Below, one piece after another: positions 8,066 through 20,118 of a DNA stretch of 42,361 bases (positions are counted from its first letter, which is position 1; each line of letters begins with the position of its first letter). The position numbers and the translations under genes are program-made. Source of the DNA: a virus. The DNA lies in IMG/VR virus record IMGVR_UViG_3300045988_031209, positions 1 to 42,361 of that record; one strand, written 5' to 3'. The notes under the pieces are model-generated. The model was given only the letters and a program-made list of their open reading frames with translations. It did no database searches and was not told the DNA's origin.

Positions 8066-8677
8066 ATGTGTGAGGTGGTTCCCGTGATATGGAATGTTGG
8101 ATTTCGAAAAAATATCACGCGGGTTATCAATGCGGTCTTCAAGAAAAAAGATGATCCCGAAGTCCAAGAGTCGTTGCATTTTGTGCGCCCGAACGCTAAG
8201 TGGAGCAAATCACCAGAGCCCGTTGTTTTAATCGACCCTGACACCGGGGAGGAATTTGTGGATTTCCCGGAAGAAACAATACCGGAACGGATACGGAAGG
8301 TTTTGGACTCTTTTCTAGTGATAGAGAGAACTTCAGATATCGATATTCTATTTTCAAGATATGATATGATTCTTGATACGCTCGATGAGCTCAAGAAGTA
8401 TGAGAGGATGGGGTTCAAATTTGATTTTAGCCCTACTGAGCTTTATAACATGATGAAATTTTCTCTCGTTGACCTTTTTGAGGTTGTTGTCGAAAATTCT
8501 TATATCAAGCAGCTGGAAAAACTCCTGACTTTGAAAACTCAAAAGGGAAAAGCAAACTCTATTCAAAAGTGGAAAGATTCTTTTTCGGATGAACGAATTA
8601 CAAATTCAATGATGGGTTGTGTGGTTTTACGTTTTGACAAAATGCAGAATTTTATAAAATCAAAAGATGAGGTGTAA
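8066..8677 (+). CDS. Hypothetical protein (203 aa), AT-rich; first gene of the lysogeny-side cassette
   Basis: Hand counts give about 35-42% GC on sampled 60-nt lines, against about 57% in the flanks. The more likely start is GTG 8084, 6 nt after GAGGTG. No family recognised. Confidence 0.7.
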   Translation: MCEVVPVIWNVGFRKNITRVINAVFKKKDDPEVQESLHFVRPNAKWSKSPEPVVLIDPDTGEEFVDFPEETIPERIRKVLDSFLVIERTSDIDILFSRYDMILDTLDELKKYERMGFKFDFSPTELYNMMKFSLVDLFEVVVENSYIKQLEKLLTLKTQKGKANSIQKWKDSFSDERITNSMMGCVVLRFDKMQNFIKSKDEV

Positions 8678-8679
8678 TC

Positions 8680-9393
8680 ATGGCAAATACCTGTCCGGTC
8701 TGCGGCGGCAAGCTGGGTCTGCTGAACCGTGAGAAAAGCGTTGACGGCTTGATTTGCGCCAGCTGCAGCAACTTTTTCTTTTCAAAATTGGGCATCCGGG
8801 CAGCAAAGCAACCGACAGCTGCCCTTGCGGACTACTGGGCTACACTGGAACAGCGTCGGAAGGCGTTCGAAGAAACCGATTCCATTTATGATGGTGACGC
8901 ACTCTTTGTGTCGATTGACAAACCCAACCGGATGTTTTGCATTGGACACCGCAGCGGCGACAAAGGCCCGCGCGTAATCTACAGCTTTGATGAGGTCGCC
9001 GGGTATGAGTCAGATGCGGATGACGTGATGGTCACGCAGTCCATTGGCGGCATTGGCCGTGCTGTGGTAGGCGCTGCCATTGCCGGGCCGGTCGGTGCAA
9101 TCGTGGGCGCATCCACCGCCAAAAGCGAGACCAGGAAGGGGCGCGGAAAGGAAAATGTCTCCATCCGCTTCGCACTTCCTCTGGGAGAGCAGGTTCTGCC
9201 TGTCCAGAAGTATCCGGGCGGCATTACTGAGTTTTTGAAGGAATGCGTTTCCGGCAGGGAAAAGGTGTCAGCTTCAACAGCTGCGTCGGGAAGCGTTGCG
9301 GATGAGCTGCTGAAATTCAAACAGCTTCTTGATCTCGGTGCCATCACCGAGGATGAGTATGCAGCAAAGAAATCTCAACTTCTTGGTATGTAA
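8680..9393 (+). CDS. Zinc-ribbon (DUF4428-like) / glycine-zipper / SHOCT-domain protein (237 aa)
   Basis: CPVCGGK...CASC, then GGIGRAVVGAAIAGPVGAIVGAS, and C-terminal ELLKFKQLLDLGAITEDEYAAKKSQLL. The ATG lies 2 nt after the upstream stop, with GAGGTG inside the upstream gene. Confidence 0.8.
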   Translation: MANTCPVCGGKLGLLNREKSVDGLICASCSNFFFSKLGIRAAKQPTAALADYWATLEQRRKAFEETDSIYDGDALFVSIDKPNRMFCIGHRSGDKGPRVIYSFDEVAGYESDADDVMVTQSIGGIGRAVVGAAIAGPVGAIVGASTAKSETRKGRGKENVSIRFALPLGEQVLPVQKYPGGITEFLKECVSGREKVSASTAASGSVADELLKFKQLLDLGAITEDEYAAKKSQLLGM

Positions 9394-10537: not shown

Positions 10538-11671
10538 ATGAAGTGCGTAAGACCATGTTGCCGGAAGGAGATCCCGGATGGTGCTTCTTTTTGTCCGTGG
10601 TGCGGGAAGAAACAGCCGGAAGCCGCCCCGCAGCAAAGAAAAAAACGCCGCCGTCCAAAGGGCAGCGGCAGCGTGTATAAACTGAGTGGAGCGCGGGCAA
10701 GACCGTATGTTGCGCTTACAGCCAAAAGGGACGTTCTGGGGACGTTTGAAACGGCAGGCGAAGCAGTACAAGCACTGGACGCTTACAACGCCCAGAACAC
10801 CCCCGCAGCGCGTCTGAAGTGCACTTTTGCGGATGCCTATACCCAATGGAAAGCACAGCCCAAATTTAACAAGCTCAGCACGGACATGCAAAAGGGGTAC
10901 GAGCTAGCCTATGCAAAGGCTACGCCGCTATACGACCGACAATTGCGGGACTTGAAAGCGGCAGATTATCAACAGGTCATTGACGCAATGGTGGAAAAGG
11001 GACTCTCCCGAAGCTCCTGCGAAAAGCAGCGCACGCTTTTTAGCCAGATCTGCGAGTGGGCAATGGCGCAGGACATCATAAACAAAAATTATGCCATGCT
11101 GCTGCAGCTCCCGGCGGCTACAGGAAAAGCAGAGCGCACCCTTACCGCCCAAGAGATCGAGCAGATCAGCAGCCGACAGAATGACCCAAGGTTTGGGCAA
11201 ACGGCACAAATCGCAATGGTGTTGCTTTATACCGGTATGCGCATTGACGAGCTGCTTTCCATGCGCTGCGAGGATGTGCATCTGAAAGAGCGGTACATGC
11301 AGGGCGGCGAAAAGACCGAGGCAGGCAAAAACCGCATTATCCCCATCCTTGAGCCCATTTACAAGATCATTGCCTTTTGGATGCTTGACAGCGGGTGTGA
11401 ATGGCTGATTCCATCCAAGGCCGGCACAAAGCTGGATAAGCGCAACGTGGCTACAAAGTTCCGGGCGTTGATGCAGGAATGCCATATAGAGGGCGTGCAC
11501 CCGCATACACTGCGTCATACCGCCAGCAGTAAGATGGTGGAGTGCGGCTTAGAAAAGACCGCCGTGCAGGCCATCTTGGGTCACAAAAATTTCTCCACCA
11601 CGGCCAACAAGTACGTGTCCCACAACAACCCAGCCTATTTGTTGCAGGAAATGCAGAAGATGAAGTACTGA
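10538..11671 (+). CDS. int: Tyrosine integrase with N-terminal zinc ribbon and AP2-like arm-binding domain
   Basis: CCRKEIPDGASFCPWCG, then GSGSVYKLSGARARPYVALT...FETAGEAVQALDAYN. Catalytic region HTLRHTASSKMVECGLEKTAVQAILGHKNFSTTANKYV. Confidence 0.9.
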   Translation: MKCVRPCCRKEIPDGASFCPWCGKKQPEAAPQQRKKRRRPKGSGSVYKLSGARARPYVALTAKRDVLGTFETAGEAVQALDAYNAQNTPAARLKCTFADAYTQWKAQPKFNKLSTDMQKGYELAYAKATPLYDRQLRDLKAADYQQVIDAMVEKGLSRSSCEKQRTLFSQICEWAMAQDIINKNYAMLLQLPAATGKAERTLTAQEIEQISSRQNDPRFGQTAQIAMVLLYTGMRIDELLSMRCEDVHLKERYMQGGEKTEAGKNRIIPILEPIYKIIAFWMLDSGCEWLIPSKAGTKLDKRNVATKFRALMQECHIEGVHPHTLRHTASSKMVECGLEKTAVQAILGHKNFSTTANKYVSHNNPAYLLQEMQKMKY

Positions 11672-11739
11672 TTTGCTAGATTGTTTGTTGGATTATCACG
11701 CGTTTTCAGGTGTTTTCGCACAGTTTCAGTAAAAAGAAA

Positions 11740-11782
11740 AGCGTATAGGCAACTTGTTTTTATCGCCTATACGCTTATTTTT
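11740..11782 (+). terminator. Intrinsic terminator after int
   Basis: An 11-bp stem AGCGTATAGGC/GCCTATACGCT with a 14-nt loop, followed by TATTTTT. Confidence 0.7.
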
Positions 11783-11830
11783 GGAGCTGGTGACAGGAGT
11801 TGAACCTGCAACCCACTGATTACAAATCAA
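11782..11830 (-). other. attP core: copy of the 3' part of a tRNA-Thr(UGU), from the anticodon stem to CCA
   Basis: Minus strand reads ttga tttgtaa tcagt gggtt gcagg ttcaact cctgt caccagc t cca. The anticodon loop carries UGU. There is no D-arm or 5' acceptor upstream, so it is not a gene. Confidence 0.75.
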
Positions 11831-11943
11831 GTTTATTTAACGTGTTAATGTAAATAATTATCAATTTGTTAACTTATTGTTAGACTATGTGCCTCGTGCC
11901 CAAACGCTGAATCTTATGTAAAAATAGCACATTCTATGCCTTT

Positions 11944-12276
11944 TTACAAGTCGCTTATCTTTCGCATTACAAGCTCATACTCTTTTGGGTACACCAGCTT
12001 TATTGCCTTCATGTGCTCGTCAAGCACCTGCATCAGACCGCCAAAAGGAACAGAGCTGGCAGCCGCCACAAAGTCGCTTTGCGGATTTGCTTTTGTGGAG
12101 TATTCCGCCGGGTGCGACGTGGGAGGCAGTGCTTGAGTCTGCATTTCTGCCGGTGCCTGCTTTTCTTCCAGCTCATTTCTCACAGTGCAGAGGGCGGCAA
12201 GCTTTTCCACGCTCTGCCAGTCGGTCGAGCCGCATTTAAGCTTGTGGATGTGGTCATTGATCTCATCGATGTCCAT
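11944..12276 (-). CDS. Hypothetical protein (110 aa), last gene before attP
   Basis: ATG follows a GGAGGAGGG-type RBS. Confidence 0.7.
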   Translation of the reverse strand: MDIDEINDHIHKLKCGSTDWQSVEKLAALCTVRNELEEKQAPAEMQTQALPPTSHPAEYSTKANPQSDFVAAASSVPFGGLMQVLDEHMKAIKLVYPKEYELVMRKISDL

Positions 12277-12294
12277 ACCTTCCGCCCTCCTCCC

Positions 12295-12690
12295 TTATGC
12301 GTTGCGCAGAATGTCCGCCGCGCGTTTGTAAGCGTCTCGCTCTGCGCCGGTGGCGTCCTGCATCATGTCCTCGATGTCGGAGATCATACGCTCTCTGCCA
12401 TCGCCGCGCGAGTAGTGCCCGCGCACATAATGCCGGCCGCGGTTTGCGTAGCTGTTGCCACGGTTGTAGTTTTCGGTGCGCCCATAGTTTCCGCGCATGT
12501 CCGCTTCCCGCTCGCCCGCACGGCTGTACTCGCCGCCCTCGCAGTAATCCTCGATGCGGTGAATGTCCAAAATGATGTCCACGATCTCGCCGATCATCTC
12601 AACATCGCCAGGGGACCGGTTCTTTTTGTCGGTCAGCTCCATGAGCTCGTCGCACATTTCATCCTTCAGATGATTCAGTTTATCCAGCAT
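12295..12690 (-). CDS. Hypothetical protein (131 aa), acidic N-terminus, R/G/Y/N-rich centre
   Basis: ATG follows AAGGAG by 8 nt. Central stretch RGNYGRTENYNRGNSYANRGRHYVRGHYSRGDG. Confidence 0.7.
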   Translation of the reverse strand: MLDKLNHLKDEMCDELMELTDKKNRSPGDVEMIGEIVDIILDIHRIEDYCEGGEYSRAGEREADMRGNYGRTENYNRGNSYANRGRHYVRGHYSRGDGRERMISDIEDMMQDATGAERDAYKRAADILRNA

Positions 12691-12706
12691 GACTTTATCT
12701 CCTTTC

Positions 12707-13129
12707 TTATGCTACCCGCTCAACGATCAGGTTGCTGTTTGCAATGCTGACCGCCTGCGCGCTGGTGTTCTTAACCGCCACAGTCACGCAGCAGCCGCGC
12801 GGCACCTCGATGAACGCCGCAACGAAAACGTTGAAGTAATTTTCGACTGCCGCCGGGGTGACAATAGCTGTCGCACTGGTCATCGACTCACCGCCGACAG
12901 CCAGCGCCACGGAAATGGGTCCCACAGTGCCGCCGGTGGGAATGGCGATATTGCCGCCAAAGCTTACCTTGAAGCGCGCTTTGCACTGATTGGTCAGGCC
13001 TCGCAGAGTCACAAGGCCGCTGCCCTCACGGTGCATGATGCAGGCAGGGGCTTTCACCGCGGTCTCGGTCAGGGGAAAGTTTTCACCCGCCGCCACACTG
13101 ACGGTGTTAGAGTTGCTAAATTCAGCCAT
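12707..13129 (-). CDS. Small all-beta protein (140 aa), C1q/TNF-like (BclA C-terminal-domain-like) by pattern
   Basis: ATG 13129 follows AAGGAGG by 9 nt. Alternating beta-strand pattern ...FKVSFGGNIAIPTGGTVGPISVALAVGGE...CCVTVAVKNTSAQAVSIANSNLIVERVA. Confidence 0.7.
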   Translation of the reverse strand: MAEFSNSNTVSVAAGENFPLTETAVKAPACIMHREGSGLVTLRGLTNQCKARFKVSFGGNIAIPTGGTVGPISVALAVGGESMTSATAIVTPAAVENYFNVFVAAFIEVPRGCCVTVAVKNTSAQAVSIANSNLIVERVA

Positions 13130-13343
13130 TATCCGAAACCTCCTTTTCTGCACAAACAGGCGCATTTACCGCATAAACGGTTTTTAAGATATCCATCCAA
13201 GAATTGGATGGATCTGCTTTTTCCGTATCAAGCAGGGTTTTCAAAATGAAAACATAAGTGTTCAATTCCATCATGCTCATTTTGTTCTTATCCATGCTGT
13301 ACAGATAATCTACAAACTGCTGTTTCAGCTCTGCTACGGTCAT
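13122..13343 (-). CDS. Hypothetical protein (73 aa)
   Basis: ATG follows AAGGAG by 7 nt and is the first gene after a terminator. Confidence 0.65.
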   Translation of the reverse strand: MTVAELKQQFVDYLYSMDKNKMSMMELNTYVFILKTLLDTEKADPSNSWMDILKTVYAVNAPVCAEKEVSDNG

Positions 13344-13361
13344 TCAAATACTCCTTTCATA

Positions 13362-13390
13362 GAAAAACGCCGGGACTTTTGCCCCGGCGC
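13362..13390 (-). terminator. Intrinsic terminator
   Basis: Minus strand reads CGCCGGGG-caaaag-TCCCGGCG followed by TTTTT. Confidence 0.7.
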
Positions 13391-13456
13391 TCTGGTTTGC
13401 AAAATCAGCTCAGGGGCTGAACATTTTCCATTTTGGAAAAAGTTGCCGTGATTCGG

Positions 13457-14296
13457 TTATGCGCAGTTGCCGCAGCCGGTCCCACAGCCATAGTAAATGG
13501 CGTTGGGGTTGGGCACCTGATAGGCAGGCACGGGAGCTTTCTGCTGCAGAGTCCCGATGATCTGGTTGGTCTGCGCGTTCATCGCGGTGGTCAGGAACGC
13601 GCTCTGGCGATCCTGAGAAGCAGCCCGGCGCAGCTCGTTGTTCTCGCTCTGCAGGGTGGCGATCTTATCGTTGGTCAGGAAGTCGAGCACCGCGCGGGTG
13701 TTGCTGTTCTGATTCTCGATGATGTCCCGGGTGTTGTTGTTCATGGTGTTCTGCGTTGCGCAGAAGCCCTGCTGCATCTGGTTCCGGGTGTCGCACTCCT
13801 GCGTGGCCAGATTGTAGTTGACTCCCTGGATCGCGGTCTGGGTCTTGCAGCAGCAGTCTGCCAGCTGTGTAGCCAGAGCATTCTGCCCCTGCATCAGCGA
13901 AACGTTGGTGCTGTTGAAGCCCTGCTGCATGGCGTTGGTGACACCGTTCAGGCCCTGCTGCACGCCGTTGAAGCCCTGAAGCATCCCGGTGTTCATGGCA
14001 TAGAAGCCATCACACAGGCCGCTTTCCAGCCCGTTCAGCTTGTTCATGACGCTCTGGTTGTCGAAGCCGCGCTGCAGGTCTGCCTGGGTCACTGCGCTGG
14101 TCATATAAGGCGAAGCACTGCCCATGCCGCCGCCCCAACCAAAGCCGCCCATGCCGCCCCAGCCGAACATGCCGAAAATCAGGAAGAGGACGATCCACCC
14201 CATCCAGTCGCCGCCCCAGCCGTTGAAGCCGTTGCTGTAACCGTTGGCGGGCTGTACCGGCATGGTCAGAACCGTGCTATCAGAAGAAAGAGACAT
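13457..14296 (-). CDS. Membrane-anchored Gln/Asn-rich repeat protein (279 aa) with Cys-rich C-terminus
   Basis: G/W-rich TM region GWGGDWMGWIVLFLIFGMFGWGGMGGFGWGGG. About 15 units of roughly 11 residues follow (MLQGFNGVQQG / LNGVTNAMQQG ...). The protein ends YYGCGTGCGNCA. Confidence 0.75.
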   Translation of the reverse strand: MSLSSDSTVLTMPVQPANGYSNGFNGWGGDWMGWIVLFLIFGMFGWGGMGGFGWGGGMGSASPYMTSAVTQADLQRGFDNQSVMNKLNGLESGLCDGFYAMNTGMLQGFNGVQQGLNGVTNAMQQGFNSTNVSLMQGQNALATQLADCCCKTQTAIQGVNYNLATQECDTRNQMQQGFCATQNTMNNNTRDIIENQNSNTRAVLDFLTNDKIATLQSENNELRRAASQDRQSAFLTTAMNAQTNQIIGTLQQKAPVPAYQVPNPNAIYYGCGTGCGNCA

Positions 14297-14349
14297 AGTT
14301 TTACTCCTTTACGTTAAATTTTGAAATTTATTCTAAATGCGGCCGCATT

Positions 14350-14574
14350 TTAGAATCCAAACATATTTTTCATGCCGTTGAGCATCGGCGCAATCTGCTG
14401 CGCCCGCTGCTGAATGGCGTTGAGCTGCTGCTGTGAGAGCTGGCCGGATGTGAGCATCTGGTTTATCATCTCCTGCGGGTTTTTCCCCTGCATCTGGCCC
14501 ATAAACTGCTGAAACTGCCCGCCAATGGGGTTCTGGGCCTGTCGGCCCATCGAATCAAACAAGCTGCTGCTCAT
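14350..14574 (-). CDS. Gln-rich small protein (74 aa)
   Basis: ATG follows GGAGGG by 7 nt. Translation MSSSLFDSMGRQAQNPIGGQFQQFMGQMQGKNPQEM... A hairpin containing GCGGCCGC lies right after the stop. Confidence 0.65.
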   Translation of the reverse strand: MSSSLFDSMGRQAQNPIGGQFQQFMGQMQGKNPQEMINQMLTSGQLSQQQLNAIQQRAQQIAPMLNGMKNMFGF

Positions 14575-14577
14575 CGT

Positions 14578-15021
14578 TTAGCCCTCCTTTTCCGGATCAG
14601 GTGCTTCTTGCTTTTCCAGCGCCGCCAGCTTTGCTGCCAGCGCGTCAAACTCCTTGCGGGTGACATACTCCCCGCCTGCAGCTTGTGCGGCTGCAATCGA
14701 CGCTTTGGGGCCGCTGGTGCGCTCCTTGTAGTCGTAGATGCGGAGTGGGAACGGCCTGCCGTCCTGCCCCACTTCTTTGATGTAGAAGGTATCGGAATCA
14801 GCATCCAGTAAAAGCACCCGGCTCCCGTTTGCGACCAGATAGCCCCGGGCTGCTGCTTCACCCTGTACCCAGATAAAGCCGCTGTCAGTCGGTGCGGCCT
14901 GCCCCTGCATTGTCGGCATCATGACAGGCTGCGGCTGATACTGCGCAGCCCTGAGCTGCTCCAGCTGTCCTTGCGGCTGCTGCGGGTAGTACACTTGCGG
15001 GTATCCGTTATAAATCGGCAT
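14578..15021 (-). CDS. Hypothetical protein (147 aa): P/Q/Y-rich N-terminus, small beta domain, coiled-coil tail
   Basis: ATG 15021 follows AAGGAGG by 6 nt. Translation MPIYNGYPQVYYPQQPQGQ...GFIWVQGEAAARGYLVANGSRVLLLDADSDTFYIKE... Confidence 0.7.
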   Translation of the reverse strand: MPIYNGYPQVYYPQQPQGQLEQLRAAQYQPQPVMMPTMQGQAAPTDSGFIWVQGEAAARGYLVANGSRVLLLDADSDTFYIKEVGQDGRPFPLRIYDYKERTSGPKASIAAAQAAGGEYVTRKEFDALAAKLAALEKQEAPDPEKEG

Positions 15022-15400
15022 CGTTTTCCTCCTTGTACCAGTAGTAGATCGGGCATTCTGCGCCACTGTCCCAGCTGTCCCACCACGCGCCGTCGATCAC
15101 GGTCAGGACGTGGCCGGAGCAGCCCAGCACGTACACGCCGCGCGGGTACTCTCGGGCAAAGTCTTCCACGGTGTAGCAGGTGGTGCAGTCCGCTTCCACC
15201 AACCGGCGCTCGAACCCGCGCTTTTGAAGGTACGCGCCCCATGTGCGGTTGGCGCTGGGCATATCGCCGAGGGCGTAGCCGGTGAGCGCCAGCGCAATAT
15301 ACGCCTGCTCCCAGCTCTGACCGGTGGCTGCAGCTACTGCCCGCACTGCGCAGTCCCCGACGCTGCTCCCGCGCGGGTTCGGGTTAAACCTGTGCCACAT
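15008..15400 (-). CDS. Putative papain-like Cys/His protein (130 aa)
   Basis: Candidate catalytic residues lie in VGDCAVRAV (Cys), GCSGHVLTV (His) and WDSWDS (Asp). ATG follows GGGAGGGGG by 4 nt. Confidence 0.65.
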   Translation of the reverse strand: MWHRFNPNPRGSSVGDCAVRAVAAATGQSWEQAYIALALTGYALGDMPSANRTWGAYLQKRGFERRLVEADCTTCYTVEDFAREYPRGVYVLGCSGHVLTVIDGAWWDSWDSGAECPIYYWYKEENDADL

Positions 15401-15480
15401 GGCACCCCCTCCCTTTGCGCCCAGTGTACCGGTTTAAACCGCCGTGAGAGACAACGAACGCACAACGAAGGACAAAAAAT

Positions 15481-15521
15481 CTTGATTTGACCTTGCTTAG
15501 AGCTTGATTAAAGCTTGATTA
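15481..15521. repeat. CTTGATT motifs: AGCTTGATTA x2 with 11-bp phasing, plus a third CTTGATT
   Basis: Exact 10-mers at 15501-15510 and 15512-15521, and CTTGATT at 15481-15487. They lie 80-120 nt upstream of ATG 15400. Confidence 0.6.
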
Positions 15522-15528
15522 CTGTGAG

Positions 15529-15572
15529 CAAAAAAGAAAAGCGCCCACACGGAAAAATCCGCATGAGCGCTT
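15529..15572 (-). terminator. Intrinsic terminator
   Basis: Minus strand reads AAGCGC...GCGCTT followed by TTCTTTTTT. Confidence 0.5.
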
Positions 15573-15634
15573 AAAGATATAAATATACTTATATAAAATG
15601 ATGCAAAATAGAAAGTTTGAACGTTTTACTTGCA

Positions 15635-15674
15635 AAAAATCAAGAGCGGAACCGCCCACAGGCAATGCCGCTCT
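15635..15674 (-). terminator. Intrinsic terminator after the small membrane ORF
   Basis: Minus strand reads AGAGCGG-18 nt-CCGCTCT followed by TGATTTTTT. Confidence 0.6.
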
Positions 15675-15698
15675 CTACAAAGGCCGTAGCTTTTCAAA

Positions 15699-15866
15699 TC
15701 ATAAATCGTATGGCGTATAATGCAAAGACGCATATACCGATAAAACCACGCCTATAAATGCACTATGCCAAAATGGAAGGACGGTTTTTAGAACGCTTGA
15801 TGTCGCCCCAAAAATAATCAGAGCGAACAAAACACGGGACAAAAAGTGATATATTTTATTTGCCAT
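15699..15866 (-). CDS. Small hydrophobic protein (55 aa, 2 TM segments), not in the ORF track
   Basis: Hand translation: MANKIYHFLSRVLFALIIFGATSSVLKTVLPFWHSAFIGVVLSVYASLHYTPYDL. The region is AT-rich. GGAGA lies 16 nt upstream, which is a weak RBS. Confidence 0.45.
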   Translation of the reverse strand: MANKIYHFLSRVLFALIIFGATSSVLKTVLPFWHSAFIGVVLSVYASLHYTPYDL

Positions 15867-15933
15867 AATTCATATAAAATTGTCTCCTGCATGGTACGCA
15901 CTGCAAGTAGGCGAGCGGGAGGCTGTATCAACT

Positions 15934-16021
15934 AAAAAGACCCGCCATGATACGCATCGTCGAGAGGCTTGACGGGTTCAGATATCCACCCTAATGTGCT
16001 TCTTCGAGAGGCCGGGTGGAT
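15934..16021 (-). promoter_or_regulatory. Structured leader: 8-bp hairpin (15984-16021) followed by a terminator-like hairpin and T-run (15934-15976)
   Basis: ATCCACCC/GGGTGGAT stem, then CCCGTCA...TGGCGGG followed by TCTTTTT. It lies between a promoter-like element and the 55-aa ORF. Confidence 0.45.
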
Positions 16022-16032
16022 TTGTTGATGTT

Positions 16033-16061
16033 ATTATACCACAATCAATCCGTCACGACAA
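16033..16061 (-). promoter_or_regulatory. Promoter-like element TTGTCG-17-TATAAT
   Basis: Minus strand reads TTGTCG tgacggattgattgtgg TATAAT. It overlaps the end of the 47-aa gene. Confidence 0.45.
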
Positions 16062-16188
16062 GAACCAGCGCAGGGCCGTTAACGCTGACCTCTGCGTCCT
16101 GATATGGCTCGACAATGGTCGTTTCCACGCCCTCGCGTTTGCGAAGCTCTGTAATAAGATTTGCGGTCGGAAGATTTTCGATGTTCAC
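16045..16188 (-). CDS. BC1881-like small protein (47 aa), not in the ORF track
   Basis: GTG 16188 follows AAAGGAG by 6 nt and shares a GTGA overlap with the upstream gene. Translation MNIENLPTANLITELRKREGVETTIVEPYQDAEVSVNGPALVLVVTD. Confidence 0.6.
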   Translation of the reverse strand: MNIENLPTANLITELRKREGVETTIVEPYQDAEVSVNGPALVLVVTD

Positions 16189-16593
16189 GGTGAGCTCCTT
16201 TCGTCTAGCTTTTCATCAATAATTTTCAGCCTATTGCCGATTGATGTCCGACAATACGGCACACGCGCTGCAATATCAACTTGACATAGCTGGTCAACGT
16301 ACCGCAACCGGGCGATTTTCCGGTCATACCTCCCAAGCGGCGCACGTTTTATCACAGCTTTTATCTGTTCTGCATTAAGCCCTTGCAACGCTGGCGGAAA
16401 GACTATGCGAGCCGCCGCCACAGGCAGCACCGAGCCAGAAGGGCTGCGGGAGCTGTCCGGCGTTGCGCACCATAGTGCCAAGCACGGCAAACTGGTGACG
16501 TTTTATCACCATTTTCGTGATGCAACGAAAATGCTCTTGTGCGGCGTACATCTCGGTGACGCCACCGGGATGCTTGTATGTAGTGCTTGCCAT
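16185..16593 (-). pseudogene. ArpU / sigma-70 region-4-like regulator, apparently split across two frames (16375..16593 and 16185..16490)
   Basis: The C-terminal frame carries IKAVIKRAPLGRYDRKIARLRYVDQLCQVDIAARVPYCRTSIGNRLKIIDEKL. The span is 409 nt, not a multiple of 3. There is no RBS-supported start in the downstream frame. Confidence 0.4.
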
Positions 16594-16603
16594 GATATCC
16601 TCC

Positions 16604-16828
16604 TTACTGCGTTATTTTCTCAGCGTTCGCCTTGTCCTCAGCGTCCAGCGCATCGTAGTACGCCTGCGCAAGGGCTTCCACCTCTGCGATGTCGTCCTCT
16701 GTCAGCAGGCCGCTGTCCAGATGGGTGTACGCCTTGTCCAGCCAGTATGCCACATCACGTCCAGCGGCGATCTCCCGCTTGATGGAGCGCAGGGTCAGGT
16801 CATGCCGTGCTTTACTTTTGATAGCCAT
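16604..16828 (-). CDS. Hypothetical protein (74 aa), XkdX-like position after the tail fiber
   Basis: ATG follows AAGGAGG by 5 nt. Confidence 0.7.
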   Translation of the reverse strand: MAIKSKARHDLTLRSIKREIAAGRDVAYWLDKAYTHLDSGLLTEDDIAEVEALAQAYYDALDAEDKANAEKITQ

Positions 16829-16838
16829 GTGTACCTCC

Positions 16839-18623
16839 TTAGGTCATGGACGCTACTGCGTCCTCCAGCTTTTTGATTGCGATGTTCACGTCCCTCTGAT
16901 ACCCCAGCTTGATGCCAGCACCATCACTGGCCTGCACCACCGTGTCAGGGCCGTAAGCTGTGAGGGCTTTGTAGGCGCCAATTTCGGCAGGGGTGAGCGG
17001 GGTTTCAACGGGGGTGGCAAGGATTGCGTTTTGTTCGGCGAGCGTTTTTGTGTTGTCAAAAGAGGTTTTATCAATCCTCTGCACCTTCACCCCTCTCTCC
17101 AAGTCCAACTCGTCGCACACCCACTGCTGGCCCTGCGGGTCAGTGTAGTTGCCGCCAGAGGTGACAGGGATGCCGGGTAGGCCAGTGGGAGTGGGCAGCG
17201 TGAGGAGCTGTTCGCGGTAGGGTTCGTATACGGTGGCTTCTGTTCCAATTTCTAGCTGGATTTTTGCGTCGTTTAATTTAATTAGTATAGTCGGCAAATA
17301 ATCATTAGCTATATATATAACATACCATCCACTTTGCAATGTTGCTGCATATGTGCCACCTCTTTCCGATATGAGTTGTGCTTTCTGTGTATATGTTTGT
17401 GTTTTTATATCAAAATCTCCAACAAAGCAGTTCGTGCCAATATCGGCATTTCCAGATGCAGTAACACTGCTCTTCACCGGAACGTAAAATACATACCCAT
17501 ATCGCACGCCACCAGTTGGCTTATTAATCTTTGACAGATCGGCATTCGTAACCACTGGAAACAGATTCTTCCCCGTCACCTTCACCGTCAAACTCCCGCC
17601 GTCGCCAGCGCTCACGATAGGCACAGGTGCATCCGGTGTGGGGGTCCCGGACTGCGTGCTCTTGCCGTACACGGTCAGGCCGCACAGGGGCGCAGAAAAG
17701 GCATCGTCAACGGCTATAGGGTTGCCTGTCTCAGTGCCCACAAGGATGTTCTGCCGCGCTTTGACTGCGCTGATAGCGTCACCTGTGGCTTTTGCGTCAG
17801 CGGCTTCGCCCTCGTGGGTGAGGGTGGTGTCCAGTGCTACGGCAGGGCCGGTCTCGCCTTTAGGGCCTTGTGGGCCGGTATCACCCTTTTCGCCCTGAGG
17901 ACCCTGCTTGCCCTGAGGGCCTGTTTCACCCTGTGGGCCGGTGGCACCCGTAGCGCCTGTGGGGCCCTGAGGGCCTGTTTCACCCTGTGGGCCGGTCGGA
18001 CCGATGGGGCCTTGAGGGCCTTGCTCACCTTTGAAGTTTCCGCTTGCAATGCCGTCCTTCAGCTCCTGCAAGCTGTCAGCGGCCTCACCGGCGGCGGTCT
18101 GTGCGTCCTCTTTGGCGGTGGTGGTGTCAGAGAGGGCCTGTCCGGCCTTTTTGGCAGATGCCCAAGCCTGCTGCGCTGCAGTCTGCGCATCGGTCTTGGC
18201 TTGCTCTGCGGCGGTGGCATCGGTGTGCACGGCATCCACCAGCTGCTGCCAGGCAGGTGTGCCAGGCTCCGGCGTGGTGCCATCCTCTGTGCCGGAGTTA
18301 GCACTCACACGGTAATGTAGGTCTGCGCTGGTGACGGTCTTTGTGCCATCACTACCCTCAAAGGTGATGCAGCCATTGCCCGGCTGTGCGGTCACGCTGG
18401 CAGGCACATCCACATAGCCGTCCACCACCAGCGAGGAGGGCGGGTCTTTGCCGTCCGGCACGTGCCAGAAAGCCCGGATGGTCAGGCCCTCCCACTCGCC
18501 GGAAGCGGTGACGGCAAGGCGGTACACGCCCCGGTTTTTGGTGTAGCCAAAGCGCACCATCTGCTCATAGCCGGGCACTTTGATAACGCCATTGGATGCG
18601 AGAGATACGCTTTGCTCGATCAT
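16839..18623 (-). CDS. Tail fiber / baseplate upper protein-like, with collagen-like G-X-Y repeats (594 aa)
   Basis: Central [62 protein letters not shown]. The N-terminus looks BppU-like. ATG follows AAGGGG by 7 nt. Confidence 0.85.
17911..17996 (-). repeat. 32-bp exact direct repeat spaced 54 bp apart within the collagen-like region
   Basis: ccctgagggcctgtttcaccctgtgggccggt occurs at 17911-17942 and 17965-17996. It encodes [11 protein letters not shown] twice. Confidence 0.85.
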
Positions 18624-18627
18624 AAAT

Positions 18628-18966
18628 TTACCCCTTGTTGATGGTAGGCTTCTTTTCTGCCAGTGCCTTTTTCATCATGCTGACGGCCTTTTCAATCACG
18701 CTGTCCAGCACTTCATCCGTGATGAAAGGCTTCAGCCAGTCCGGAAGTGCGCCGCGCAGCGCGGCAAAGACCTGTGCCTTTTTCTTTGCACCCTGACCGC
18801 TGCCCATGATGCTATCCTCGGCGATGGTCACGAGTTCAAGCGCCCACTGCTTGACGTACTGCTTGTAGCCCAGCCGGATGGCACCAACGGCCAGCGCGGC
18901 AAAGCCGATGAACATCAGTACCAGTGCGATGGGTGCGGGGATAAAGTTAAAAAACATTGCTTCCAT
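18628..18966 (-). CDS. Holin, LL-H family-like
   Basis: N-terminal [25 protein letters not shown], then [16 protein letters not shown]...[10 protein letters not shown], typical of LL-H holins. Confidence 0.75.
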
Positions 18967-19339
18967 GATTCGTTACTCCTTTCAGTAGGTAGTTGTTAAT
19001 ATCGGATTTACTTTTTTGCATACCTTCGCGGTTATTTCCGGAAAGTTGCGCATCCAGAAGGTTCTGCACGCCAACAAGGACGAGACGCATTTCTTCATCG
19101 ATTCCGTCAAAGCGCGTCAAGTCGCGTCTAAGGGCCGCGGTGTGCTGCGTGGAAACGGTTTCTACCGCAGCCAGTCGCTTTTCAATGGTGTCAATGCGCT
19201 TGTTCTGCGCATCGTCGGGGGCCTGCGCCTTTTTGATGTACTTATGAATGATTTCCAACACCTTGTCGATGGTGATGGCCGCAGCGCACAGGCTGCCCAG
19301 GATGCCAAGCACCCAAAGCAAAGCTTCTTTTTCAGTCAT
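18947..19339 (-). CDS. Membrane-anchored coiled-coil protein (130 aa), lysis-associated by position
   Basis: N-terminal TM ALLWVLGILGSLCAAAITI. ATGA overlap with the endolysin stop. Confidence 0.65.
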   Translation of the reverse strand: MTEKEALLWVLGILGSLCAAAITIDKVLEIIHKYIKKAQAPDDAQNKRIDTIEKRLAAVETVSTQHTAALRRDLTRFDGIDEEMRLVLVGVQNLLDAQLSGNNREGMQKSKSDINNYLLKGVTNHGSNVF

Positions 19340-20118
19340 TTACCCTCCCGGAGACGGGTCAGACCCTTCTTGCGGATGATACGGGGGTAGTTGAGGGTGG
19401 TCACATTGAGGTCTACGTTGCCGCTGATGCCCGGCACAGCGCCCTTGCTGGTGTGCTGGTGTGCGTTGTAGTTAAACGTCACGTTGGGCGTTTTGCCGGT
19501 GTAGTCGGCAAGCCACACGTCCCACCGGGAGGACAGCCTAGCCATATCCAGTTCGTATTTGTAACCGGTGTAGGTGTAGAGTTGGGCATAAAAGCCCATC
19601 CGCTCCACCTGTTCCAGCGCGTAAGCGGTAAGGTTGGACAGGTCATGCGTGGACAGCTGCTTGAGCTTGTTTTCCTCCACGTCCACCGCCACCGGAAGGG
19701 TCAGCTCCTTGCCGTAGACCGCCTGCCGCACAAGGGCAAGCTCTGCATCGGCCATTGCTTCGTTGGTGGCGTAGGTATAGTAGTAGACACCCACGTCCAG
19801 ACCCGCCGCTTTGGCGTTGCGATAATTGTCCTCAAAGGTGGGGTCGATGTACAGACCGTCCGCCTGCTTGGAGAGCTTGTGGTTGGTGCTCACGGTCTTG
19901 AGCATCGCCCCCTTGTAACCCGCCGCTGCCACCTGCGCCCAGTCGATCGCACCCTGATACCGGCTCACGTCAATGTACCGGTATGGCGGGTCGCCCTTCC
20001 ATCCGGTGACGGTTTCCTCAATGGGAGTCTCTCTGGGCGTTTCCGGCGCAGGGCTTTCGCCGTCCCTGCCAAAGAGCACCTTCACCAGCCACGCCAGAAA
20101 TTCCAAAAGTTTTTCCAT
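19336..20118 (-). CDS. Endolysin, glycoside hydrolase family 25 muramidase
   Basis: YIDVSRYQGAIDWAQVAAAGYKGAMLK...AGLDVGVYYYTYA. There is a hydrophobic N-terminal segment LLEFLAWLVKVLFG. Confidence 0.85.
   Translation of the reverse strand: MEKLLEFLAWLVKVLFGRDGESPAPETPRETPIEETVTGWKGDPPYRYIDVSRYQGAIDWAQVAAAGYKGAMLKTVSTNHKLSKQADGLYIDPTFEDNYRNAKAAGLDVGVYYYTYATNEAMADAELALVRQAVYGKELTLPVAVDVEENKLKQLSTHDLSNLTAYALEQVERMGFYAQLYTYTGYKYELDMARLSSRWDVWLADYTGKTPNVTFNYNAHQHTSKGAVPGISGNVDLNVTTLNYPRIIRKKGLTRLREGK

Follow-up and report, generated by a model that had tools for sequence, protein, structure and literature searches.

A conserved and mobile accessory operon near the attachment site of phages from gut Clostridia

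The closest described counterparts of the locus considered here are phage morons and conversion cassettes, for instance those of Staphylococcus and Streptococcus prophages. These lie between the lysis genes and the phage attachment site (attP), are framed by terminators and promoters, and contain no recognisable morphogenesis genes. The same combination is found in a 4.6-kb interval of the virus record IMGVR_UViG_3300045988_031209, whose whole 42,361-nt stretch of DNA, hereafter the window, supplies the numbering used throughout. The minus-strand open reading frames (ORFs) from a collagen-repeat fibre gene to attP are designated g0 to g11 (Table 1), and one small unit among them, that of g3, resembles a textbook moron. 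In contrast to lysis-to-attP morons, however, the core of the interval does not behave as variable cargo made up of single genes. Its seven or eight genes form a fixed operon that is distributed across phage families and is also present in an apparently virulent phage.

This core, consisting of g1b followed by g4-g5-g6-g7-g9-g10-g11, is one conserved and mobile phage accessory operon, which in the 4.6-kb interval is combined with several small genes that are lineage-specific. When species-representative genomes were scanned with a g9 profile, 80 loci were obtained. Together with nine loci collected earlier and the window itself, these make up a set of 90 loci in which the gene families were traced with iterative hidden Markov models (HMMs). 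The g7 family was present at 84 of the 90 loci, g5 at 73, g10 at 62, g6 at 53, g4 at 52, g1b at 50 and g11 at 29. The order of the core genes was the same wherever they were found, many of the absences fell at contig ends, and the complete arrangement was present at 14 loci. The gene set therefore travels together, with a fixed-order core across about 80 genomes. The initial annotation of this DNA had divided the island into separate units, but these are not independent, since seven or eight of the genes belong to a single block with conserved synteny. Similarly, the g4-g11 core does not show the variable presence among close relatives that is expected of a moron. Literature searches on BC1881, on BclA with prophages and on the phage C3_41T2LP returned nothing relevant, and no paper describing the module was found.

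The 80 loci from the scan lie in Clostridia genomes or in contigs of metagenome-assembled genomes (MAGs), mostly of Oscillospiraceae, Lachnospiraceae, Ruminococcus and Acutalibacteraceae. Several carriers are contigs of about 40 kb that were binned into Collinsella, Alistipes, Bacteroides or Methanobrevibacter MAGs, and these are taken to be mis-binned phage contigs. Dulem virus 33, from lemur gut, possesses g1b, g4-g7 and g9-g11 in the same order, located between lysin and integrase and sharing 27-62% amino-acid identity with the window. In the cultured Butyrivibrio phage Ceridwen, the complete operon directly follows the lysin and a small membrane ORF. A prophage of the cultured Vescimonas fastidiosa MM35 carries g4-g11 directly after a holin and an amidase, abutting host genes at the prophage edge. 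At the DNA level, g4-g7 are 91% identical between the window and the close relative L093, which lacks g8 and has other genes between its holin and g4. Comparison of the DNA with L093 and with two further close relatives, L001 and L002, marks the interval from the lysis genes to g4 as a mosaic hot spot.

Additional ORFs occur within some copies of the operon. Dulem virus 33 has a homing-endonuclease-like gene, annotated 'endonuclease', between g6 and g7 (L003, 11466-12017), and Ceridwen has a 287-aa ORF, HNH-like by eye, between g9 and g10 (L090, 12449-13312); apart from these insertions, both operons are intact. A small conserved ORF of approximately 50-65 aa, with a motif of the RLIAAG...A...W/Y...G.D..LE.YV type, is present between g1b and g4 in at least ten loci (L003, L010, L016, L023, L027, L033, L034, L046, L048 and L062) and not in the window.

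Two unrelated phage backbones carry the operon next to their attachment site. At 18 loci, an integrase or recombinase was found no more than 3.5 kb downstream, in most of them convergent and at a distance of 80-760 bp. In the Lachnospira-type phage, the block is found 284 bp downstream of a serine recombinase, making its genes the first prophage genes inside attL. This Lachnospira/Ruminococcus-type phage, which carries a g5-g7-g9 block, sits in a sporulation-type sigma gene, of which the fragment covers regions r3-r4 and is SigG-like by eye. The fragment adjoins a PRC-barrel (YlmC-like) gene in L004 and L007 (host side, ~8079-8886) and adjoins spoIIGA and sigE in L091 (5939-7964), and in the excised form (L005, L006, L008 and L009) the serine recombinase is at the junction. 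It would be uncommon for a forespore sigma gene to be interrupted by an intervening phage.

The protein encoded by g7 possesses an acidic N-terminus and a single hydrophobic anchor at residues 32-53 flanked by runs of glycine and tryptophan. The long helical region that follows is Q/N-rich and contains a near-invariant CCC, and the protein also has a PxPAY motif and a C-terminus rich in cysteine. Glutamine and asparagine together account for 21% of its residues and there are nine cysteines, in agreement with the first description of this gene product as a G/W-rich, anchored Q/N protein with a Cys-rich tail. Part of the G/W/M-rich segment is encoded by a 9-bp tandem repeat, GCCGCCCAT, present in 3.4 copies at 14144-14174. 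Among the core proteins g7 alone has a hydrophobic N-terminal segment, and the charges around the anchor lack the positive-inside bias expected if its large domain were outside. The family corresponds to phrog_16490 (5e-62) and comprises at least 7,932 clusters at 90% identity, with names no more specific than 'hypothetical protein' and no recurring Pfam domain.

Beyond the Clostridia, crAss-like phages gave tblastn matches to g7, as did the Bacteroides phage C3_41T2LP, which is in culture. For the protein of C3_41T2LP, the match to the g7 HMM has an E-value of 1.4e-39 and spans the G/W anchor, the CCC, an ASQ..Q motif, the PxPAY motif and the Cys-rich end. Three genera of Suoliviridae share a block in the order holin, LysB/FtsL-like protein, R/G/Y-rich protein, g7-like protein, a protein of about 140 aa and one of about 187 aa. 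The g7 homologues of crAss-like phages lie among structural genes and are annotated 'outer capsid protein/viral fiber' or 'spike protein', both of which are computational labels. The neighbours of g7 in the crAss-like and Bacteroides phages were considered as divergent forms of g9, g10 or g5 and rejected, with hhalign probabilities below 1%. Given its presence in these phages, g7 is not specific to Firmicutes, spores or lysogeny. In one crAss-like genome (L095, 5728-6711; cr109_1 gp64), the annotated g7-like coding sequence reads as two ORFs under table 11, which suggests an in-frame recoded stop codon.

With its N-terminal anchor, long helical region, conserved cysteines and location beside holins, g7 is reminiscent of the i-spanins and of LysB/FtsL-like lysis proteins. 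In contrast to i-spanins, the hosts of the window's relatives are Clostridia, which are monoderm, a lipoprotein partner is absent, and no sequence similarity was detected. Specifically, no core ORF besides g7 has the hydrophobic N-terminus that a lipoprotein signal needs, so that the operon contains no spanin pair. The crAss-like phages with g7 homologues already carry a separate LysB-like gene.

The second widespread member of the operon is g9, which starts at an internal methionine of a 152-aa ORF, as in its homologues, and contains a conserved GCC motif. An AlphaFold2 (AF2) model with a mean predicted local distance difference test (pLDDT) score of 96.7 is a jelly roll throughout. In Foldseek searches the top matches were F-BclA, the BclA C-terminal domain, BxpB and ExsFA (9h38, 1wck, 8d02 and 7r1m; probability 1.0, template-modelling (TM) scores 0.70-0.77), and the scores for 9h38, 3tyj, 2r6q and 1wck ranged from 0.69 to 0.77. 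Further matches included TNF-family ligands and phage fibre knobs, among them the phi812 spike knob and cyanophage fibre domains. The model thus identifies g9 as a BclA-C/TNF-type jelly roll, with a predicted fold superposable on the BclA C-terminal domain, and the proposed C1q/BclA-C-like nature of the protein is upheld. Like BxpB and ExsFA of the Bacillus exosporium, g9 is a stand-alone protein of about 140-170 aa. Pfam BclA_C found no match in the window g9 but matched two of 66 relatives, at best with 7.3e-7. In contrast to BclA, BxpB and ExsFA, with which it shares only 10-14% identity, g9 is phage-encoded and is also found in phages of non-spore-forming hosts, and its trimeric state and any role in anchoring are putative. 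The collagen-like GXY region of BclA is absent from g9.

Sequence conservation of g9 is high. Among phages of Oscillospiraceae, Lachnospira and lemur gut its identity is 59-62%, compared with 41-59% for g7 and 27% for g11, and this unusual conservation makes it a poor fit to a host-range determinant. At least 7,986 clusters at 90% identity, or 610 representatives at 50%, belong to the family; none is named beyond 'hypothetical protein' and no Pfam domain recurs.

Stand-alone regulators with a GerE or sigma-70 region-4 domain are the nearest counterparts of g1b, which heads the core operon. Its homologues are complete, stand-alone helix-turn-helix (HTH) proteins, mostly of 66-106 aa, with two that are longer and one that is truncated. 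Within a family of 32 members, Pfam Sigma70_r4 matched 16 (best 4.2e-10), Sigma70_r4_2 matched nine and GerE matched five (2e-6). In contrast, the window g1b itself falls below Pfam detection and is tied to the family through the iterative family HMM and weak matches to PHROG transcription regulators. On these family profiles g1b is predicted to be a sigma-r4/LuxR-type HTH protein. The mechanical ORF reaches 16490, and the start is probably the GTG at 16430 or 16421, which gives 78-81 aa. A dedicated small HTH regulator at the head of the operon, as had been supposed, is upstream of the core in 50 of the 90 loci.

The same region had been described as a split ArpU regulator composed of g1a and g1b, and this description is not sustained. 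Neither product matches ArpU in NCBIfam or Pfam at E<=1 or reaches the approximately 140 aa of ArpU proteins, and the homologues of g1b stand alone, without an N-terminal half resembling g1a. A frameshifted ArpU gene was likewise rejected, given that g1b is in the +1 frame relative to g1a, that the two-ORF layout is common to close relatives and that distant homologues are complete without g1a. The overlap of g1a and g1b is about 50-115 nt, an arrangement also common to close relatives. Within the g1a region (16375-16593) are the short inverted repeats CATTTTCGT...ACGAAAATG and GGTGA...TCACC; together with the overlap, these could reflect translational coupling or a structured leader.

The first gene of the core after the regulator, g4, compares best with the clan CA enzymes, whether C39-like, Josephin-type, NlpC/P60 or Tgl-type. 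C17, H97 and D108 are invariant in an alignment of 59 homologues and occur in the canonical order, the fold is alpha-plus-beta, the size is right and the AF2 model has a pLDDT of 93.4. In contrast to those enzymes, g4 matches no curated family HMM: no Pfam or NCBIfam match at E<=1 was found to the Peptidase C39, NlpC-P60 or CHAP models, and a profile search of the PDB was empty. Structural matches in the PDB are weak, with Josephin-2 the best at TM 0.51, followed by staphopain and Tae4, but all are papain-type. The fold is also spread over many unrelated phages, as BFVD contains many stand-alone small phage proteins of many hosts with this fold, one of them annotated Peptidase C39. Overall, the model and the invariant residues identify g4 (phrog_3754, 5e-30) as a predicted papain-fold protein with a Cys/His/Asp triad, consistent with the papain-like Cys/His protein first proposed.

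The remaining core products are low-complexity or helical proteins. In g5, which probably starts at M16 of a 162-aa ORF, a P/Q/Y-rich N-terminus is combined with a conserved small beta-rich domain (IWVQGE...YxKSxDxSG) and a C-terminal helix (YVTRxEFxxL); it corresponds to phrog_21718 (2e-25). The Gln-rich 74-aa protein g6 (phrog_22984, 1e-19) was correctly described as such, with 23% glutamine and 12% methionine, and contains the motif NPLF...GDP...SG..SQ.QLN. The N-terminus of g10 is helical with a motif of the HKLTDTIKNIDKI type, its middle is rich in R, G, Y and S, and its C-terminus is again helical. The C-terminal motif of g11 is of the WxVMDELM...NPRxYxxVMRKI type. No relative of g5 or g10 was found in the PDB or Pfam and no family match was found for g11. 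Profile searches of g4, g5, g7, g9 and g10 against PDB sequences gave chance-level matches only (keratin, HA2 and designed helical proteins), and when the members of the g5, g7 and g10 families were individually compared with Pfam, nothing above noise was obtained.

As first described, the block contains no recognisable morphogenesis or lysis gene. Scans of all island products against Pfam, NCBIfam and PADLOC yielded nothing useful beyond BC1881, the PHROG families matched are of unknown function only, and the matches to PADLOC-DB defence systems were limited to ZorA coiled-coils at chance level (E>0.03).

Terminators cut the island off from upstream transcription, both in the window and at the many loci that have a terminator after g1b. 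The strong intrinsic terminator at 15539-15572, which is 98% conserved in L002, is predicted to isolate the core operon from everything upstream. Of four intrinsic terminators initially listed, two are strong and one is moderate, but the hairpin in the g3 leader at 15934-15976 is no better than shuffled sequences; its match to the abiF RNA motif of Rfam (RF03085) is sub-threshold at 26.5 bits compared with a gathering cut-off of 37 (E=0.15). For the terminator between g7 and g8/g9, the 112-nt segment that contains it has a z-score of -3.0.

Phased AGCTTGATTA repeats had also been thought to split the island, but only one local array is present, the repeat decamer occurs three times in the window compared with 1.9 expected by chance, and the array is an insertion relative to the closest relative, L001. 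Its absence from L001 rules out the 11-bp repeats as a conserved operator. Closer to g4, at 15401-15480, are two copies of a direct repeat (C/G)(C/G)TTCGTTGT, spaced 11 bp apart and located about 22 nt before a -10-like hexamer, TACACT. In contrast to the array, this repeat is also present in L001, and it is a candidate HTH operator. A direct repeat TTCGTTG, shorter than the array unit and likewise spaced 11 bp apart, is common to the window and L001 (by eye only). At 18 of 73 loci, the window not among them, the motif TTTTT[A/G]TGC[G/C]AAAAT is located right after the g1b terminator and just upstream of the first cassette gene (for instance in L030, L033, L034, L046, L047 and L004). This motif looks like the TRTG extended -10 promoter of Gram-positive bacteria.

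The other genes of the interval differ from the core in their distribution. The genes g2, g3 and g8 are insertions, and g0 and g1a are confined to the closest relatives. The BC1881-like character of g2 was confirmed by NCBIfam NF033495 (E=1.9e-15, 56.3 bits against a curated cut-off of 27, model positions 2-45 of 45) and it also matches phrog_5765 (7e-17); it is private to the window and absent at all other loci. In g3, described as a peptide with two transmembrane segments, one strongly hydrophobic window was confirmed (residues 8-32, Kyte-Doolittle value 2.04), while the second stretch is weaker and seen by eye only. The g3 unit has 100% amino-acid identity and, over 15636-16046, 95% DNA identity in L002, with much more divergent flanks; the ORF is precisely deleted in L001, and the unit is absent from L093. 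Conservation at 95% in one relative and clean deletion in another is classic moron behaviour. Thus, g3 with its promoter-like site, leader and terminators is read as a discrete moron-like unit. The gene g8 is an occasional insertion, seen in eight loci and absent from L093. For g0, which is found only in the window, L001 and L002, there is no family match. A family search located g1a in the same three, with no Pfam or NCBIfam match, and at the corresponding site in L093 the DNA is 70% identical and contains two overlapping ORFs of comparable length. The collagen-repeat fibre gene, g0, g1a and g1b form a travelling block in L001 and L002; in tblastn, the fibre is 50% identical to that of L001 and 69% to that of L002.

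Table 1. Features of the window from the endolysin gene to the integrase gene
Feature	Position	Strand	Remarks
GH25 endolysin	19336-20118	-	upstream context
130-aa ORF	between GH25 endolysin and holin	-	
Holin	18628-18966	-	upstream context
Collagen-repeat tail-fibre-like protein	16839-18623	-	594 aa; downstream of holin; Pfam Collagen, 2.3e-9; PHROG tail-fibre families
g0	16604-16828	-	74 aa, acidic, helical
g1a	16375-16593	-	72-aa ORF, strong Shine-Dalgarno sequence
g1b	16185-16430	-	predicted sigma-70 region-4 / LuxR(GerE)-type HTH
g2	16045-16188	-	47 aa, BC1881 family
Candidate sigma-70-like promoter for g3 unit	16033-16061	-	TTGTCG, 17-nt spacer, TG-TATAAT; 10/12 matches and extended -10 TG
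Weak hairpin and U-run, g3 leader	15934-15976	-	z=-0.1, no more stable than shuffles
g3	15699-15866	-	55-aa hydrophobic peptide
Moderate terminator-like hairpin and U-run	15642-15675	-	just past g3; z=-1.9
Strong intrinsic terminator	15539-15572	-	15-bp stem and U-run, -25.2 kcal/mol, z=-6.7
Tandem array	15481-15521	-	11-bp unit, 3.7 copies (TAATCAAGCTt on minus strand); Tandem Repeats Finder score 54
g4	15008-15400	-	130 aa, predicted papain fold
g5	14578-15021	-	147 aa, P/Q/Y-rich
g6	14350-14574	-	74 aa, Gln/Met-rich
g7	13457-14296	-	279 aa, G/W-anchored, Q/N-rich, Cys-rich
Intrinsic terminator between g7 and g8/g9	13364-13393	-	13-bp G+C-rich stem and U5
g8	13122-13343	-	73-aa ORF
g9	12707-13129	-	140 aa, predicted TNF/C1q jelly roll
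g10	12295-12690	-	131 aa, R/G/Y/S-rich
g11	11944-12276	-	110 aa, helical; final gene ahead of attP
attP core	11781-11849	-	3' part of tRNA-Thr(TGT) (~50 nt), anticodon arm to CCA
Strong terminator past attP core	11739-11776	-	z=-7.5
Tyrosine integrase	10538-11671	+	convergent; Pfam Phage_integrase, 6e-31

The function of the operon has to be judged from these properties. A plausible, though tentative, reading is that it is a separately transcribed module whose products would build a complex on the cytoplasmic face of the membrane and serve the lytic programme. A cytoplasmic-side complex is the simplest reading because the other core products have no hydrophobic N-terminus and g7 has no positive-inside bias. 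In this model the operon would be a separate transcription unit controlled by the HTH protein g1b, and g7 would be both membrane tether and coiled-coil scaffold, with its N-terminus out and its C-terminus in because all of its partners are cytoplasmic. The g9 product may be a trimeric cap or adaptor, and g5, g6, g10 and g11 may be low-complexity or helical partners, with the Met/Gln-rich g6 possibly shielding the g7 anchor. The role of g4 could be to process or cross-link one of the partners. The complex would serve egress, lysis timing or exclusion during infection, rather than altering the lysogen surface. A broader version, possible but doubtful, is that the g7-centred block is a late or egress membrane apparatus of gut phages that has so far escaped recognition, shared by temperate Clostridia siphophages and virulent crAss-like phages of Bacteroides and acting with the holin. 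Its G/W-anchored, Cys-rich coiled coil and TNF-like trimer would then, for instance, affect the timing of lysis, phage release or, at the inner face of the membrane, exclusion.

Several observations weigh against a lytic membrane complex. The adjacency to attP and the promoter and terminator framing at many loci are the classic signature of a prophage-expressed moron, and no sigma-70-type promoter was found upstream of g4 in the window. The block has no recognised lysis genes as neighbours in the Lachnospira-type phage or in C3_41T2LP. Sharing with crAss-like phages is demonstrable for g7 alone and not for the operon as a whole, and g4 may be an independent passenger because its fold is widespread in phages outside the operon. 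While only lytic growth of Ceridwen has been observed and its authors deem it virulent (PMC7372960), the phage possesses an XRE/antirepressor pair and could be derived from a temperate phage.

Part of this evidence would suit conversion or exclusion cargo, that is, a prophage-expressed operon that alters the lysogen through membrane-level superinfection exclusion or a change of the envelope. Besides abutting attP or a recombinase in two unrelated backbones and the prophage edge in V. fastidiosa, the block has its own HTH protein, is exchanged between phages as a unit, and is preceded in 18 of 73 loci by the terminator and extended -10-like motif, which would give it moron-like autonomy. An accessory set beside the attachment site is a part of the initially proposed lysogenic-conversion role that stands. 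The proposal is weakened by the full operon of Ceridwen, known only from the lytic cycle, and by the position of g7 beside the holin in virulent crAss-like phages, and there are no PADLOC matches. Virulent phages also encode exclusion functions, so exclusion as such stays compatible with both settings. The lack of a hydrophobic N-terminus in six of seven core products makes a surface or secreted product unlikely, and the surface-remodelling or secretion function originally suggested is disfavoured, with g7 as the only anchored protein and no charge bias placing its large domain outside. Taken together, conversion cargo is a conceivable but somewhat unlikely explanation. An accessory virion fibre, with g7 as a trimeric coiled-coil shaft, g9 as a TNF-like knob, and g5, g6, g10, g11 and g4 as chaperones or maturation enzyme, is unlikely. 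Phage fibres do bear TNF-like knobs, as the phi812 spike and cyanophage domains among the g9 matches illustrate, chaperone genes commonly come after fibre genes, the collagen-repeat fibre gene of the window is also downstream of the lysis genes, and the crAss-like g7 homologues are labelled fibre or spike among structural genes. Those labels are computational rather than experimental, however, and a hydrophobic segment of about 20 residues is unusual at the base of a fibre. Moreover, g9 is far more conserved than the usual receptor-binding proteins, and lysis genes and strong terminators stand between the structural operon and the block, which moves between unrelated structural backbones.

The resemblance to spore-coat proteins suggests a mimic of the coat or exosporium, in which a GerE-like regulator would drive coat-like proteins that modify the spore surface or form a cross-linked layer. 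The best structural matches of g9 are exosporium proteins, with a weak sequence link to BclA_C, and GerE is matched by five of 32 relatives of g1b. The compositions of the window proteins, set beside established knowledge, also parallel those of GerQ, Tgl, CotG and ExsY, many of the hosts belong to lineages that form spores, and a sigG-like gene is the integration site of one carrier phage. Nonetheless, this explanation is very improbable. The operon occurs in a phage of Butyrivibrio fibrisolvens, which is not known to form spores, and g7 occurs in phages of Bacteroides, which are non-spore-formers. No coat-family Pfam match was found in the scanned g5, g7, g9, g10 and g1b families, TNF-like folds are common in phages, and apart from the g9 fold the likeness is compositional. 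Because the block is also present in phages of hosts without spores, the shared tool-kit of a TNF-like trimer, Cys-, Q- and R/S/Y-rich proteins, a papain-fold enzyme and a GerE-like regulator is regarded as an analogy. The last possibility, a chance accumulation of unrelated morons without a common function, can be given almost no weight. It describes g2, g3 and g8 and the mosaic interval from the lysis genes to g4 well, but it is refuted for the core by the fixed order and co-occurrence of g4-g11 in about 80 species-level genomes.

The surroundings of the operon agree with the first description of the region. All of the minus-strand ORFs between the collagen-repeat fibre and attP exist as described, and the upstream endolysin, holin and second fibre were identified as a GH25 endolysin, a holin and the collagen-repeat fibre. 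The attP core was assigned by its likeness to tRNA-Thr and a partial Rfam tRNA match; ARAGORN found no complete tRNA there, as expected for an attP core. Two complete tRNAs, tRNA-Lys(TTT) and tRNA-Trp(CCA), are encoded by the window phage at 30807-30883 and 36972-37045. At the gathering threshold Rfam found nothing else in the window, with matches to abiF, S15 and snoRNA models all sub-threshold. Beyond the tyrosine integrase is an HTH repressor-like gene, and beside it on the lysogeny side a 237-aa protein in which DUF4428 and a SHOCT domain are combined with a glycine-zipper-like region (8680-9393, plus strand), with a 203-aa neighbour (8066-8677, plus strand). A homologue of the DUF4428/SHOCT gene is present in L093, and this protein and its neighbour may have a separate prophage-expressed function.

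In conclusion, the initial annotation was largely correct in what it observed. Its picture of accessory genes that move as a set and have their own regulator stands, its division into independent units does not, and the role it proposed, at the surface or specific to lysogeny, is probably incorrect. Viewed as one operon, eight anonymous ORFs become a single unit that can be tested, with a signature for annotators. Cultured material is at hand in Butyrivibrio phage Ceridwen, Bacteroides phage C3_41T2LP and the V. fastidiosa MM35 prophage. With at least about 8,000 clusters at 90% identity each, g7 and g9 belong to the larger blocks of phage 'dark matter' in the Clostridia of the mammalian gut. 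Moreover, the link between g7 and the crAss-like phages joins abundant gut phages of two host phyla through a protein encoded beside the holin, and a phage-borne fold of the BclA/BxpB type, predicted to be trimeric, is of interest for the origin of exosporium proteins.

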